In this document: in pieces, positions 16,926 to 35,967 of the stretch
How positions within the stretch are numbered: the stretch's first letter is position 1
Layout of the letters: every line of letters starts with the position of its first letter
Origin: Escherichia phage phiWec177
DNA length: 64,000 bases
Sequence record: LC739532.1
Strand: one strand, 5' to 3'
Made by a program: the position numbers and the translations under genes
Notes under the pieces: model-generated
Told to the model about the DNA's origin: nothing
The model's database searches: none
What the model saw: only the letters and a program-made list of their open reading frames with translations

Positions 16926-17474
16926 ATGAAGAAATTGATTCTAGGTTTGTGCTTAATGTTTACAGCACACTTATCTTATGCAGTTGACTGCCCAGAGCTA
17001 TCAATTAGCCAAAAAGTAAACATGTTAAAAGCTTACCAGTATGGTGAGAATAACATGGGTAAAGGTTGGGGTATCACTCTAGCTGCTATAGCCTTACAAG
17101 AGTCAGAGTTAGGTCTGAAGGTAGAGAATAAAAAGACACATGATTATGGTATTTTCCAGAATCACTTGAAGACTGTTGTAAAGCGTAACAAAATTAGTCC
17201 TAATGTGGCTAAAAAGAAACTCTTAAAAGACTTTGACTATGCTGCGAAGGAAACGCACAAAGAACTTGAGTTTTGGACAAAGGTGCATGGTCAGCCAAAG
17301 TCAAAGAAGATTTTACAAAAAGTTTTAGCATCATATAATGCTGGGTATTCGTACAGAATCCCTAAAGCTAAGAAATATTCTCAAGATGTCTATAACAACA
17401 TGAAAGTTATCGCTCAATGTGAATTTGCAACAAACATTTCTAAGGTAAATCATGAAAAAATTAAGAAAGTCTGA
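16926..17474 (+). CDS. Secreted lytic transglycosylase-like protein (SLT domain) with signal peptide
   Basis: N-terminal signal peptide MKKLILGLCLMFTAHLSYA; SLT-like motifs AIALQESELG and DYGIFQ. Confidence 0.55.
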   Translation: MKKLILGLCLMFTAHLSYAVDCPELSISQKVNMLKAYQYGENNMGKGWGITLAAIALQESELGLKVENKKTHDYGIFQNHLKTVVKRNKISPNVAKKKLLKDFDYAAKETHKELEFWTKVHGQPKSKKILQKVLASYNAGYSYRIPKAKKYSQDVYNNMKVIAQCEFATNISKVNHEKIKKV

Positions 17475-18147
17475 TGAAGTACTGTGCCATGCTTATGACT
17501 TGCATCCTCATGAGTTAGGTCTTGATTCTGACATATGGACTCCAGAACAGTGTAGGGATTTTGAAGACACCGCAAGAGAAGTTGTATGTTCACTCGAAGA
17601 GTTCCACACATCAGAGCCAATTGTGAATGTTGTAGATAAAGAGACTGGACAAACTATAGGTGTGAGTCGTGATAGCTTAGTCATAGTCAATAAAGACCTT
17701 GTAGAAAAAGGGAATCTCATCTTAGCAGATATTGATGGTGTTCTTACAAATTTTAATCACGAAGATTGCTCAACGGAATTGACCGACGGTTCATTCTCGC
17801 AGTATACCAATCTTCTTGATTCTGTAAGAGCAAAGCCGACGTATGTTTTCAATATCATTGATGCAATTGCTAATCATGCTGCTGTTGGACTCTTGACAGC
17901 GAGAGGTGAATCTCAGAGAATACCTACTGAGATGTTTTTAAGGCATAACACAGAGCATGACTACATGCTTTTTATGCGTGGTTTTGGGACTAACTCTATA
18001 AGTGCAGAAAGTTTGAAAGTGAGGATAATTCAGTCTTGCATTCTGCCTTACTTTAATATAGTATGTTTTATAGAAGACACAGAGAAGAATGTGCAGAAGG
18101 TGAACAGAATCCTTCCACACATTAAAACCATGTTAGTTAAACATTGA
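17452..18147 (+). CDS. HAD-superfamily hydrolase-like protein (putative nucleotidase/phosphatase); start uncertain
   Basis: DxDGVL-type motif (ILADIDGVL) followed by LLTARG and IEDTEKN segments. Confidence 0.35.
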   Translation: MKKLRKSDEVLCHAYDLHPHELGLDSDIWTPEQCRDFEDTAREVVCSLEEFHTSEPIVNVVDKETGQTIGVSRDSLVIVNKDLVEKGNLILADIDGVLTNFNHEDCSTELTDGSFSQYTNLLDSVRAKPTYVFNIIDAIANHAAVGLLTARGESQRIPTEMFLRHNTEHDYMLFMRGFGTNSISAESLKVRIIQSCILPYFNIVCFIEDTEKNVQKVNRILPHIKTMLVKH

Positions 18148-26255: not shown

Positions 26256-26786
26256 ATGAACAAATTTCAAGCTATCAACCACATTCGTTCAAATAGTGTC
26301 ATGTCTAAGCCTGTTAAAGACACATATGAGTTCCGTTGTAATGGGGTACACTTTGCAACCATCACTAAATCAGAAAACGGGGCTTATTACGTTCATCGTC
26401 GTAATGTTTATACCGTTGTAGTCTCTCACTTTATGCAAGCTGTAGCAGAGTTATTACCGTTATTCTTAGAGATTTACTTAGATGAGTGTAAAAACGTTCA
26501 CAACCACGTTAAAAACCTTTTAAACGGTTATAAAATGGCTTATGAGCGTTCTATCAAGTCCTTAAACAAGTTCTATAAAGCCCCTGCAAATACTGTTTCA
26601 ATGGCTTACAGTGTAAGCGGTGAGTTGGTTAGTCTCTTCGAAGTGGAAGAAATCGAACTATATAACTCACGCCCTAGCGGTTACTCTAAGACACTGGGAG
26701 AGGGCTTATCTTTCAATATCAAGAACTTAGAGAAAACTTTAAAAGATATTGAAAAAGATATTGACGAGACAATCAAAAATCTGTAA
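26256..26786 (+). CDS. Hypothetical protein
   Basis: 176 aa ORF. Confidence 0.45.
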   Translation: MNKFQAINHIRSNSVMSKPVKDTYEFRCNGVHFATITKSENGAYYVHRRNVYTVVVSHFMQAVAELLPLFLEIYLDECKNVHNHVKNLLNGYKMAYERSIKSLNKFYKAPANTVSMAYSVSGELVSLFEVEEIELYNSRPSGYSKTLGEGLSFNIKNLEKTLKDIEKDIDETIKNL

Positions 26787-26852
26787 ATTGTCAATCAACG
26801 GGGAGGGAATGACCTTCCCCACTAAATAAAGTCCTAAACTGGAGATTCTAAA
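26780..26852 (+). repeat. Intergenic cassette type B copy 5
   Basis: Near-identical to 25100-25173 but with GGGGAGGG instead of the G run. Confidence 0.55.
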
Positions 26853-27101
26853 ATGGCAACTATCCGCGCCACTGTTAACGAATTTGGTTTTTACTCTCTG
26901 GATGTTAAATTTGACCTTGTAGGCACTGACAACGCCTTTGAAATGGTGAAAGGTCTTATCAGTCAGACCATCAAGGACTATAACCCCTCTAATGAGTTCT
27001 GGAAAGAAACAAAACAGGAAGTTCTTAAAGATGGTTACACTTTTCACTATTGGGGTGAAAAAATCGTCTCCCTGTACTACGACAAAGAAGGCACTAACTA
27101 A
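26853..27101 (+). CDS. Hypothetical small protein (last plus-strand gene before non-coding region)
   Basis: 82 aa ORF. Confidence 0.45.
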   Translation: MATIRATVNEFGFYSLDVKFDLVGTDNAFEMVKGLISQTIKDYNPSNEFWKETKQEVLKDGYTFHYWGEKIVSLYYDKEGTN

Positions 27102-27139
27102 ACACCGCAGCGGGGCTAAATAGCCCCAGATACCTGAAC

Positions 27140-27166
27140 AGCCCCTATTTAAAGGGGCTTTTTTAC
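27140..27166 (+). terminator. Rho-independent terminator (tandem hairpins)
   Basis: GGGGCT-aaat-AGCCCC then AGCCCCT-attta-AAGGGGCT followed by TTTTTT. Confidence 0.6.
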
Positions 27167-27340
27167 GTCTATTGAATTCTTATACAATCCCTTTCCCTCA
27201 CCTTCCTAGAATCTTATCAGACCTTAAAAGCAATAACTCTATAGTCTACTCTATAACCTCTTATCAAATCAACTAAGTGGCATTGTTACCAATCCCTTAA
27301 ATATAAGCCCATAACCCGAAAGGGAAGGGCAATCCCTTAA

Positions 27341-27430
27341 ACGCTCTATAACGCTCTATAACGCTCTATAACGCTCTATAACGCTCTATAACGCTCTATA
27401 ACGCTCTATAACGCTCTATAACGCTCTATA
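27341..27430. repeat. Perfect tandem repeat, 9 x 10 bp (ACGCTCTATA)
   Basis: Nine identical contiguous 10-mers seen directly; no spacers. Confidence 0.95.
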
Positions 27431-27599
27431 ACAGCCTTATCAACCTAACTTAAGCAATCATATTAACCCACTCTAAAAAGCCCTTTATAGAGCTTCTCAG
27501 AGCCTTAAAAGAATCTTATAAGGGTGTAAGCTTTATCGTCTCGTTAGTATTCTTGTGAATATCTAAAAAGGACTTGTTAGTGTCTTAAAAGTATGTTAT

Positions 27600-28260
27600 A
27601 GGGGCTATGAAGTTACGTAAAAGTAGCTTAAAAGTAGCTTAAAAGTTACGTAAATGCTAGCCCCCTTAACATTTTCTTAACAATTTCTTAACAATCCCTA
27701 CATAGTTATACTTTTAAGGCACTTGTTAGCAACTTGTTAGCCCCTTGTTAAATCTCTGTTAAGACCACGTAAAAGCCTTGTAAGAGTCTTTGACATAGCC
27801 TTAAAAGCTCCTGTAAAGCCCTATAAAGAGCTATCCATACAGTTGAGGGGTAAATACTAGGAAGAGACTTAAAAGAGCTTATAAAGAGCTATAGAGAGCT
27901 TTTAAGAGGTATGTTTAAGGAATCACTAGGGGTTGGTAACAATACCAATTAAGAGGGAAAGGGAACGATAAGACCAGAGATAGTGACCATGTTAATAGCT
28001 TGTTAAAAAGATTAAACACTTGTTAGGAACTTGTTAATTATCTTAACAAAATAACTCTTTAAAATTAACTTGTTAGCTCTTGTTAGGCATCTGTTAAGAT
28101 TCTGTAAAGACTATTCAGCACTTGTTAGAAAACTGTTACAACCTTGTTAGTTCTGTTAAGAAACTGTTAAGACCTTTGAAGAGTTGTTAAGAAGATGTTA
28201 GAACTGTTAAGAGATTGTTAAGGATATTTTAAAATTTTGCAAAGTACTTGTAAGGGAGCT
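27600..28260. repeat. Dense array of (C)TTGTTA(A/G)/CTGTTAAG heptamers and their complements at about 10-12 bp spacing
   Basis: More than 25 copies counted by eye, many at one-helical-turn spacing; also AAAAGTAGCTT x2 and TTCTTAACAAT x2 direct repeats. Confidence 0.8.
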
Positions 28261-28864
28261 GTTAAGGGCTACCAAGCAGATATACATCTTCTACAGATAT
28301 TTTTGAGTTCCTTCAAAGACCCTAAAAAATGACTTGATAGTCCTATTTTATAAAAATTTTAAGATTCTGAATAATTACCTATACAGTCTTTTAAAAATAC
28401 AGGTAGAAACAGGCTTATAAGATACCTTGTTAGTACCGTGTTAGACCTTGTGAGATAAGGCCTGTAAAGATATTCCTGTTAAGTTTGTTAAAACAGTCTA
28501 TATAGAGGCTTAGTAATACCTAGTGAACACCTATAGAGGGTATCATAGCTGACATAGAGATTAAGAGGTGTATAGGAGCTTCTAAGGGGGTGTAGAGAGA
28601 TGGTTAAGGTGATTGTATAGGCTGTTAAGAAGGTTTGTTAGAGGGCTAGTTAGAAGGGTTATACAGAGGGCTATTAAGACCACTAGATAGTTACTAAGAT
28701 ACTATATAGTACTATATAACTATATATATAGAGAGTAAGATTAAGAAGGCTGTTAAGAAGGATAGATATTTTATTCACATATGATGGTGACCCAGAGGTT
28801 GGGACAACCGATAAAATTTTATAAAAATTAAAAAGCCCCCAATTAAGGAGGCTCTTAAGATATT

Positions 28865-29545
28865 TTAAATCAGTGTTTCCAGAACTGTTTTTAGGGATGA
28901 CTTAGTTGTCTGATAAAAATGAGTGAATCCATTGTTGTTATCGAATATCTGCATCATGATATCATCTCCCTTGATTGGGTACACTCGGATATCATAGTGA
29001 AAACCATTAAAGACACAAGAACCACTACAGAATTCACTAAAGTCAGCCACTGAGATATACTCTTCGTGACCTGTGATTTTTATACAGACACCTTTACTCG
29101 GTCTCTTAGGTTTGATATCTTCCATAATAGACATACTCTGTCCACCAAGAGATACCATAGTGACCACTTTACGGTTCTGCTGTTTAACATACATTTCAAG
29201 TTTCTGCAAAGTATCTTTATAGAACGGATAAGACTCCTTAACAAAGATACCTTTTAGTGGCTCTTTACCATTCTTAACTTCTCTGATATGCCGTACTGAT
29301 AAGATAAGCTGCTCTAGTCTGTTAAGGCTTTCTTTGGATAATGCTTCTTGAACATCATTCCAGTCAAGTACCAAGTACTTTCTCTCTAATTCAAACTGTT
29401 TTTCCATATCTATCAAATCCTGAAAATACTTCTTAGTGATTTTTGACCACTCAGCAAAATGAATCTTTTTCTTCTTCCGAAGGAGAACCATATCTTTCAA
29501 GTTCATCCAATTCATCCTGCGAAGGTGTCCCGTAAGATTCTTCAT
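28865..29545 (-). CDS. Hypothetical protein
   Basis: 226 aa ORF, first gene of minus-strand block; start uncertain. Confidence 0.45.
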   Translation of the reverse strand: MKNLTGHLRRMNWMNLKDMVLLRKKKKIHFAEWSKITKKYFQDLIDMEKQFELERKYLVLDWNDVQEALSKESLNRLEQLILSVRHIREVKNGKEPLKGIFVKESYPFYKDTLQKLEMYVKQQNRKVVTMVSLGGQSMSIMEDIKPKRPSKGVCIKITGHEEYISVADFSEFCSGSCVFNGFHYDIRVYPIKGDDIMMQIFDNNNGFTHFYQTTKSSLKTVLETLI

Positions 29546-35368: not shown

Positions 35369-35595
35369 GGCAGACCTACAGCTTTAAGTAAGATGGTACA
35401 GTAATCCATACAACAAGTCAAGAACTATTGCAAGTTAAAAAGTTGTTGACAAAGTACTTGACAAGGTGTAGGCTTATAAATACTTAGAAGATAACTTAAA
35501 AGGTTCCTCTAAAAAGGCTATTTAAACAGATATCTTTCTGGATATCTATCTTTTATCTTAAAAGCCTTTTAAGAGGTCTTATAAGAGGCATACCA

Positions 35596-35967
35596 ATGAA
35601 AAACAGAACAAACAAAGGCCAGTTTAAAAAAGGCCAGTCTGGAAACCCATCTGGAAGACCAAAAGGCTCTCGTAACAAAAGCTCACTCGTAAAAGCTCAA
35701 CTGACCATTGATAATTCTGCTGAGTTTGCTGCAAAGTTGTTTGAAGCGATTGTTACAAGGGACGCTGCTAAGCTTGCAGAGTTCGGTTTGACGACTGATG
35801 ATGTAAACCTGAAGGCGATGATGGAAGCTGGTAAAACTATCATGACCCACTCAGCAGGTGAGATGAAAGCAATTGCAGCAGACACTAAGAAGACTCCTGA
35901 TAACGGTGGTCAGTCTCAGACAGATAACAAACCAACGTTCTCTGCTGTTGCAACCCTCAAAAAATAA
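35596..35967 (+). CDS. Hypothetical protein with N-terminal GNPSGRPKG motif
   Basis: 123 aa; basic Gly/Pro-rich N-terminus KGQSGNPSGRPKGSRNK. Confidence 0.45.
   Translation: MKNRTNKGQFKKGQSGNPSGRPKGSRNKSSLVKAQLTIDNSAEFAAKLFEAIVTRDAAKLAEFGLTTDDVNLKAMMEAGKTIMTHSAGEMKAIAADTKKTPDNGGQSQTDNKPTFSAVATLKK

Follow-up and report, generated by a model that had tools for sequence, protein, structure and literature searches.

What is a perfect tandem array of nine identical 10-mers doing in the genome of Escherichia phage phiWec177, and how did it get there? The array lies in a 64,000-nucleotide stretch of the phage DNA (sequence record LC739532.1; the whole stretch is hereafter called the window). It was initially taken for a helically phased protein-binding site (iterons, a partition site or a packaging site) or for bent DNA. 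The comparison with related phages suggests a two-part answer. The array as such is almost certainly a recent, strain-specific replication-slippage expansion, i.e., a variable-number tandem repeat, of a conserved doublet. The doublet, in turn, belongs to a conserved non-coding element which may serve as a cis-acting platform for protein binding.

27341..27430, + strand: array of nine ACGCTCTATA units, very probably grown from an ancestral doublet of the class-A motif defined below (sequence read, Tandem Repeats Finder, copy numbers in relatives)

The nine ACGCTCTATA units follow one another head to tail with zero deviations in a direct read of the sequence. Tandem Repeats Finder delimits the repeat at 27340-27432 (period 10, 9.3 copies, 100% matches, no indels, score 186) and ranks it as the top-scoring tandem repeat of the whole 64-kb window. 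Since the chance of eight exact re-occurrences of a 10-mer is ~4^-80, such an array could not have been produced by chance. Thus, the nine perfect 10-mers of the original prediction are borne out, and so is the long region free of open reading frames (ORFs): there is no ORF of at least 40 amino acids (aa) in any frame between 27123 and 28865. The array does lie within this region, though not exactly at its edge, as had been thought, but ~180 bp inside it.

Expansion of an Ancestral Doublet

A search with the 1.8 kb around the array found 256 matching phage records, and in 191 of these the match covers at least 80% of the query. The segment is 100% identical to the corresponding region of Escherichia phage phiWec172 (LC739530, genus Felixounavirus), where 9 copies were counted. 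The sister isolate phiWec174 harbors 11 units; over 6.8 kb, apart from these two extra units, it departs from the window only in the length of a TA run (an indel of one TA) and in the very first base of the alignment.

In other relatives the array is much shorter. Two units each were found in the 18 loci read directly (Felix O1, Andreotti and 16 felixounaviruses from IMG/VR); unit 1 of these loci is ACGCTCTATA, and unit 2 is either identical to it or 1-2 bases off (AAGCTCTATA, ACGCCCTATA, AAGCCCTATA, AAGCGCTATA). Felix O1, Si3, Moogle, Michonne and SUSP1 have the perfect ACGCTCTATA doublet. As it is shared by Mooglevirus and Suspvirus (Michonne, Moogle, SUSP1 and relatives), the perfect doublet is concluded to be ancestral, and the two-unit site as such is kept across three genera. 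In a flank-anchored copy-number survey of GenBank, covering a spread sample of 60 of the 250 relatives, the span fitted two units in 50 cases. Six of the ten relatives with a longer span were read: radambza possesses three units (ACGCTCTAAA twice plus ACGCTCTATA), ESCO50 possesses four, and the other four possess two units and unrelated 12- or 23-bp insertions nearby.

Hence, the doublet, grown independently in at least three lineages and differing in copy number between near-identical genomes, behaves as a slippage-prone tandem repeat. The hallmarks of slippage-made variable-number tandem repeats were all found: perfect head-to-tail copies, conserved flanks which can be aligned across a variable copy number, a low-copy ancestral template, and a copy number varying even between near-identical isolates. 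What sets this repeat apart from them is that its unit is a site conserved in three genera, within an element evolving by unit-sized indels. The expansion and its polymorphism are directly visible in the sequences; the expansion is probably neutral or nearly so. A conserved functional array, as originally envisaged, did not withstand the comparison: the array is absent or highly variable in close relatives, mostly with 2 copies, which is the outcome that the original prediction itself had named as counting against it.

Two points weigh against this account. The copy numbers of 9 and 11 rest on short-read assemblies, and the expansion may carry a selective advantage. In an adaptive scenario, the extra class-A copies, or an RNA transcribed from them, would titrate out a factor of the host or of its defence; phage PhiTE, escaping ToxIN via an expanded pseudo-ToxI repeat, provides a precedent. 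The independent expansion of the same locus in three lineages (radambza with 3 units, including a variant one; ESCO50 with 4; phiWec172 and phiWec174 with 9 and 11) speaks in favor of this scenario, as do the 14 class-A units which Erwinia phage phiEa21-4 has naturally. At the same time, slippage is expected to change any perfect doublet repeatedly, even where no selection acts, and 9 vs. 11 copies in sister isolates indicate instability rather than a selected optimum. Moreover, the unit is only 10 nt long, lacks structure, and is situated between two terminators with no supported promoter. The resemblance to a type III antitoxin or a known RNA family is likewise missing: the spacer holds no Rfam match, and the unit of 10 nt contrasts with the ~36-nt repeats located beside a toxin gene. 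An adaptive expansion is, overall, quite unlikely.

Taken alone, the array is an ordinary unstable repeat, useful as a strain marker and as a caution regarding assembly accuracy. The element around it is the more valuable result. A second slippage-prone spot of the same spacer is the TA-rich run ACTATATAG/TATATATA at 28699-28728, which differs by one TA unit between phiWec172 and phiWec174.

The Conserved Non-Coding Element

27165..28830, no strand assigned: conserved ORF-free spacer with a 10-11 bp quasi-periodicity, holding the array (no ORF of at least 40 aa; conserved length and identity)

The spacer is 1605-1807 bp long in 26 relatives, in which the flanking proteins have diverged to 50-60% identity. 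Its nucleotide identity to the window amounts to 91-95% within the genus and to 82-84% in Mooglevirus/Suspvirus; the flanking genes show 67-94% (gp23; 71-73% in the distant clade) and 77-97% (gp24; 71-74%). In most comparisons, the spacer is as conserved as, or more conserved than, these genes. Judging by sequence similarity, it is an element found across the subfamily and present in the four Ounavirinae genera sampled. The searchable genome papers on Felix O1-like phages contain no description of it.

The spacer is conspicuously periodic. With the array collapsed to two units, the autocorrelation of 4-mers peaks at lag 11 (63 per mille vs. 5.9 +/- 2.1 in coding controls), reaches 29 per mille at lag 10 and displays harmonics at 20-22, 31-33 and 40-44, whereas the coding DNA controls show the usual 3-bp signal instead. 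The distinct indel events in the spacer also cluster by size: 11 fall at 10-12 bp, 10 at 21-23 bp and 3 at 32-33 bp, with single events at 99, 110, 132 and 143 bp and only 3 each at 5-9 bp and 13-20 bp. This clustering suggests that the whole element evolves by the gain and loss of ~11-bp units, the 10-mer array being an extreme case. The conservation, the periodicity and the indel pattern are all direct observations.

Within the spacer, short motifs are set mostly in one orientation (+:- counts are 12:0 for CTTGTTA and TGTTAG and 9:0 for CTGTTAA). In 24 aligned relatives, the core positions of TGTTAR are conserved to 93-97% vs. 79-88% between the cores. The unit of the array, ACGCTCTATA, represents a second motif class (class A), YTCTA(T)AA, arranged in doublets to quadruplets. 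Another class-A doublet is found upstream of the array:

27237..27256, + strand: class-A doublet CTCTATAG-tcta-CTCTATAA with 12-bp spacing (motif map; kept in all aligned relatives)

A counterpart of the element is discernible in a more remote genus. Erwinia phage phiEa21-4 (Kolesnikvirus) has a ~1.4-kb spacer in the same convergent position, with an 11-12 bp periodicity and TGTTAAG/CTGTTAA repeats (GTTAAGA 12:0). The left third of this spacer contains the 14 class-A units, YTCTA(N)AN, in doublets to quadruplets at 10-12 bp spacing (TTCTAA 12:1); one such stretch reads CTTCTATAAC vs. GCTCTATAAC in the window. A block of window 28165-28286 is collinear with phiEa21-4 17367-17479. By its motif class, the array unit is, thus, a standard building block of the element, normally present as a doublet.

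Accordingly, the helically phased protein-binding site of the original prediction was half right. The unit does belong to a phased, sequence-conserved set of motifs, while the nine-copy array itself is not conserved. The 10-bp unit, compared with the 10.5-bp helical turn, drifts in phase by ~17 degrees per unit.

The explanation favored here runs as follows. An ancestral two-unit direct repeat, ACGCTCTATA x2, would have grown to nine copies by replication slippage. The doublet would be one module of a ~1.7-kb conserved non-coding element located where two convergent transcription units end. The element would be a mosaic of short motifs recurring every 10-11 bp, mostly in one orientation, with a turnover by ~11-bp units. 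It would work as DNA, i.e., as a cis-acting platform along one helix face of which a protein of the winged-helix type could bind cooperatively. The expansion seen in the window would merely multiply one class-A site from two to nine. As a joint claim, the array as an expanded module of a cis-acting protein-binding platform is fairly probable, though far from assured. From the sequence pattern we infer that proteins bind here at all, what these binders could be, and that the phage may benefit from them.

In another reading, the DNA of the array would be intrinsically bent and serve a structural purpose (condensation or the management of supercoils between the convergent units), with no specific binder needed. 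A wedge model predicts for the array an end-to-end/contour ratio of 0.88 vs. 0.96 on average in the window, so that the array ranks among the most curved 1.3% of 90-bp windows; the space between convergent units is also where positive supercoils accumulate. Hence, the curvature suspected from the outset is indeed predicted. However, the unit lacks A-tracts, and the two-unit relatives cannot share the predicted bend. Elsewhere the periodic spacer, with the TGTTA field described below, is predicted to be straight (0.97), curvature being limited to the array and two other spots. The motif cores are, in addition, more conserved than the bases between them, which points to sequence recognition. A purely structural role is, thus, very unlikely.

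Alternatively, the spacer could encode one or several non-coding RNAs, the repeats acting at the RNA level, e.g., as a sponge for an RNA-binding protein. The strong strand asymmetry of the motifs (CTTGTTA 12:0, CTGTTAA 9:0) and the high nucleotide conservation with no coding capacity would agree with this, and so would a small conserved hairpin:

27311..27334, no strand assigned: small conserved GC hairpin GCCC-ataa-CCC-gaaa-GGG-aa-GGGC, just upstream of the array (sequence in relatives)

Some relatives have the variant GCC-aataa-CCCC-agaaa-GGGG-at-GGC, in which both stems are kept; folded as DNA, the hairpin reaches -5.9 kcal/mol (z = -1.8). The array and the motif fields, on the other hand, have no predicted structure: none is predicted for the single-stranded array, and 199 of 200 shuffles fold better than its + strand. 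Rfam, searched with 26500-29500 at E <= 1, gave no match in the spacer and only a sub-threshold Phe-leader hit on a terminator. Promoter-like sites are not more common in the spacer than in shuffles, and terminators face inward at both of its ends. A candidate promoter at 27677-27706 (TTAACA-N18-CATAGT) was dropped, the stretch being poorly conserved. An optimal spacing of 11 bp and the inverted layout of 27666-27762 (see below) are characteristic of the recognition of double-stranded DNA. The RNA reading is, therefore, not supported and is considered highly improbable.

A minor component of the element deserves separate mention:

27273..27295, + strand: 23-bp mini-insertion TAAGTGGCATTGTTACCAATCCC (alignment; at this position only in phiWec172 and phiWec174)

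An 88% inverted copy of this mini-insertion lies at 27928-27951, 630 bp away. A related 23-mer occurs in HMD-P10 (L047) and SUSP2 (L048) at another position, just upstream of the two-unit site. Such ~23-bp insertions, with the core GTGG-yATTGTTACCAA-yCCC, vary in presence, position and orientation among the relatives and are also found in loci L021, L023 and L034 near window position 27983. They may represent a tiny duplicating or mobile unit or a gain of two units (2 x 11 bp).

The TGTTA Field and Its Match to ArcA Boxes

Which protein could occupy such a platform? As a motif, TGTTA-N6-TGTTA, set in one direction, dominates the spacer. Within the spacer, TGTTA has 31 + strand and 6 - strand copies, and exact TGTTA-N6-TGTTA is found 12 times on the + strand of the spacer vs. 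once in the other 62 kb. This corresponds to the rule established for the sites of the host oxygen-response regulator ArcA in its phosphorylated form, ArcA-P: a TGTTA core, an 11-bp centre-to-centre distance and 2-5 repeats per site, with a 12-bp spacing reported to abolish the occupancy of an extra repeat (PMC3798270, PMC4173790). ArcA is described as conserved among the relevant hosts (PMC10653796).

To quantify the match, the 115 ArcA boxes of E. coli tabulated by Park et al. (2013, Table S3), all defined by experiment, were turned into an 18-bp matrix. With it, 15 hits at 10 bits or more, 10 at 12 or more, and 6 at 15 or more were obtained on the + strand of the spacer. The hit density in the spacer is 9.0 per kb vs. 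0.36 in the rest of the window at 10 bits, and 3.6 vs. 0.02 per kb at 15 bits. In 500 dinucleotide-preserving shuffles, 0.95 +/- 1.0, 0.35 and 0.06 hits were obtained at 10, 12 and 15 bits, respectively, and none of 2000 column-permuted matrices attained the 15 hits of the real one, their mean being 1.5 and their maximum 14. When the spacer columns were made neutral, 19 hits were recorded at the 11-bp spacing vs. at most 7 for the other spacings within 8-15 bp. Three stretches hold such boxes:

27666..27694, - strand: three near-consensus ArcA-type direct repeats TTGTTAAGAAA-TTGTTAAGAAA-ATGTTAAG (two overlapping 18-bp boxes, 22.7 and 22.5 bits)
27723..27762, + strand: four TGTTA direct repeats with exact 11-bp spacing (boxes of 11.9, 10.6 and 17.9 bits)
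27989..28243, + strand: main TGTTA(R) direct-repeat field with sub-arrays 27989-28037, 28070-28108 and 28122-28243 (twelve boxes, 9.9-17.7 bits)

The - strand boxes at 27666-27694 (TTGTTAAGAAATTGTTAAGAAAATGTTAAG) outscore every listed training box (maximum 21.4 bits) and face the four-repeat run of the + strand at 27723-27762. A similar enrichment in ArcA-type hits was found in Felix O1, Andreotti, UAB_Phi87, Michonne, Moogle, SUSP1 and phiEa21-4. The spacer, hence, features what characterizes an ArcA site at the sequence level, i.e., the TGTTA core and at least two repeats at 11 bp scoring as real boxes; the 10-mer array does not. The statistical match is an observation in its own right, and, by the matrix scores, the dominant sequences of the spacer are statistically indistinguishable from strong ArcA boxes.

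In the favored explanation, the TGTTA field would fit the binding architecture of ArcA-P, and the class-A units would be bound by a second partner. It is possible, though on the unlikely side, that host ArcA-P is the main binder of the spacer. Several points weigh against ArcA. The array unit does not qualify as an ArcA box: on either strand its score stays below 0 bits, and no 18-bp stretch of the array exceeds -4.2 bits (+ strand) or -1.2 bits (- strand). The - strand of the array reads GCGTTAT, a weak repeat (3.6 bits by a hand sum over the single-repeat matrix columns) with a 10-bp and not an 11-bp spacing. With these scores, ArcA does not explain the array. In IMG/VR, at least 120 unrelated contigs, some from AT-rich giant viruses, likewise contain four TGTTA repeats spaced by 11 bp, so the pattern alone is no proof of ArcA involvement. 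Some unit spacings in the spacer are 9, 10, 12 or 20 bp, which ArcA reportedly tolerates poorly. A phage-encoded protein of similar specificity would fit equally well.

The multi-repeat ArcA-P operators of E. coli (icdA, astC, paaA, phoH; PMC3798270, PMC4173790) share with the spacer the TGTTA core, the 11-bp spacing and the direct repeats in runs. Unlike the chromosomal sites, which comprise 2-5 repeats overlapping a promoter, the phage spacer has at least 28 TGTTA(R) over ~1 kb with no supported promoter.

Other binders were considered as well. The consensus patterns of PhoP (TGTTTA-N5), CpxR (GTAAA-N5), PhoB, OmpR-like regulators and TorR have no match in the spacer. The operator half-site of DeoR, TGTTAGAA, was rejected: the bases following TGTTAG vary, and the repeats are direct, not palindromic. 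The neighboring gp23 product was also discarded as the binding protein; it is acidic (13 D/E vs. 9 K/R by our own count) and lacks a Pfam match, and its positional counterpart in phiEa21-4 is 15% identical. A literature search linking Felix O1 and ArcA returned nothing relevant.

A more far-reaching, and doubtful, proposition is that all Ounavirinae carry a non-coding "landing pad" of 1.4-1.8 kb with several dozen ArcA-type direct repeats, which would bind ArcA-P in infected enterobacteria. If so, the pad could couple phage development to the oxygen/redox state of the host. Multiplied by replication, it could also be a decoy draining ArcA-P and de-repressing the respiratory metabolism of the host. 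Such a phage-borne array of transcription-factor sites would operate as a sensor or a sponge, with the class-A units serving a second partner. If the match reflects real binding, a global regulator of the host would be read or manipulated by a virulent phage via DNA sites and not via a protein, which is rare, and an oxygen-dependent behavior of these phages in the gut would be predicted. The Felix O1-like phages are widely used in typing, detection and biocontrol of Salmonella and E. coli.

Outside the spacer, the divergent promoter region at 35430-35600 (between the - strand block and the tRNA-structural block) contains CTTAAAAG/CTTATAAG-type motifs as in the spacer, and a single ArcA-type box of 14.5 bits is located at 35432. 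The enrichment of CTTAAAAG on the + strand outside the spacer was set aside, being mostly due to Leu-Lys codons in + strand genes.

Replication, Partition and Packaging

Either the array or the whole spacer could be an origin of replication, with the repeats as initiator-bound iterons beside an AT-rich unwinding region. The direct repeats in helical phase would agree with this, and the spacer does contain candidate parts:

28323..28385, no strand assigned: most AT-rich stretch of the spacer (85-87.5% A+T in 40-bp windows)
28274..28286, no strand assigned: non-repetitive 13-mer AAGCAGATATACA, identical in phiEa21-4 at 17467-17479 (blastn-short of the two spacers)

The 13-mer, kept between genera, is set in the central, non-repetitive part of the spacer and adjoins the AT-rich stretch (85-87% A+T), and one relaxed DnaA box is situated at 28771. 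ArcA-P is reported to bind E. coli oriC, and this was also counted in favor of an origin, as was the fact that the accessible papers on these phages name none. The remaining evidence is adverse. The genes run toward the spacer from both sides, not away from it; the adjacent proteins belong to no Pfam family, and there is no initiator-like gene among the flanking ORFs. The spacer has no DnaA-box cluster, no IHF consensus and no GATC, and the nearest AT-rich stretch is ~900 bp from the array. A copy number ranging from 2 to 11 between close relatives is unexpected for a tuned set of iterons, and the GC skew merely tracks gene orientation. An origin is, thus, not supported and is rated unlikely.

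The same holds for the iterons proposed at the outset, in view of the flanking ORFs lacking an initiator, the missing DnaA-box cluster and the distant AT-rich stretch. Known iterons (lambda ori, P1 incC/incA, P4 ori/crr) resemble the array as helically phased direct repeats in non-coding DNA which could titrate a binding protein. They differ in their unit (17-22 bp vs. 10 bp in the array), the adjacent initiator gene, the set of DnaA/IHF sites and the conserved copy number.

A partition site was the second suggestion. The type II centromere parC of plasmid R1 consists of two sets of five 11-bp repeats bound by ParR, and, like it, the spacer presents arrays of 10-11-bp direct repeats which a small protein could coat cooperatively. 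Here, however, no par genes (parM/parR-like) are encoded by the eight neighboring ORFs, the phage is strictly lytic, and the arrayed region exceeds 1 kb. Hence, partition is not supported either.

As to packaging, in phage UAB_Phi87, terminal repeats of 608 bp were mapped by Bal31 digestion and run-off sequencing (PMC4837284). The homologous spacer is found at 14.55-16.25 kb of its record, the start of which is presumably the mapped end. A region ~14.5-16.2 kb from the start of the deposited record is at odds with the packaging site initially proposed, and this function finds no support. The spacer may also be compared with phage T5, where a repeat-rich non-coding block of more than 1 kb with the injection stop signal is likewise placed some way in from one end of a large virulent enterobacterial phage genome with terminal repeats. 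Unlike in T5, the spacer lies at ~17-18% of the genome, and Felix O1-like phages are not known to inject their DNA in two steps. The timing table obtained for Felix O1 by reverse transcription PCR is too coarse to speak for or against a T5-like two-step injection.

Flanking Genes and Genome Context

The boundaries of the spacer are formed by two transcription units converging on it, each closed by a terminator facing the spacer:

26853..27101, + strand: gene ending the rightward transcription unit, a homologue of Felix O1 gp23, 82 aa, acidic (ORF list; PHROG 4559, function unknown)
27140..27159, + strand: rho-independent terminator closing the + strand block (terminator scan: 7-bp stem with 5 GC pairs, then TTTTTT)
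28831..28856, - strand: rho-independent terminator closing the - strand block (terminator scan: 10-bp stem)
28865..29545, - strand: gene ending the leftward transcription unit, a homologue of Felix O1 gp24, 226 aa (ORF list; PHROG 4330, function unknown)

These two blocks correspond to the Felix O1 transcription units 97-131/1-23 and 40-24 of Whichard et al., who list other direct repeats of Felix O1 and do not mention the spacer (PMC3185647). The spacer accounts for ~2% of a Felix O1-like genome. The gp23 homologue, with no match in Pfam, is labelled hypothetical in LC739530 and NC_005282; Felix O1 gp23 was found in purified virions by mass spectrometry and is listed as a structural protein (PMC3185647). 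The homologues fall into two divergent allele groups (~85-93% and ~52-68% identity to the window copy), located beside an almost invariant spacer.

GATC is found 0 times in the 64-kb window vs. ~224 expected from its base composition, and CCGG, CGCG, GGCC and GCGC are strongly depleted; an absence of MboI/GATC sites had been described before in VpaE1, a related phage (PMC4690856). Finally, the annotation of the region is inconsistent between records: three tiny ORFs (78-150 nt) are annotated within the homologous spacer in the UAB_Phi87 record (JN225449, 14525-15312), whereas other GenBank records have either none or repeat_region features in the spacer.

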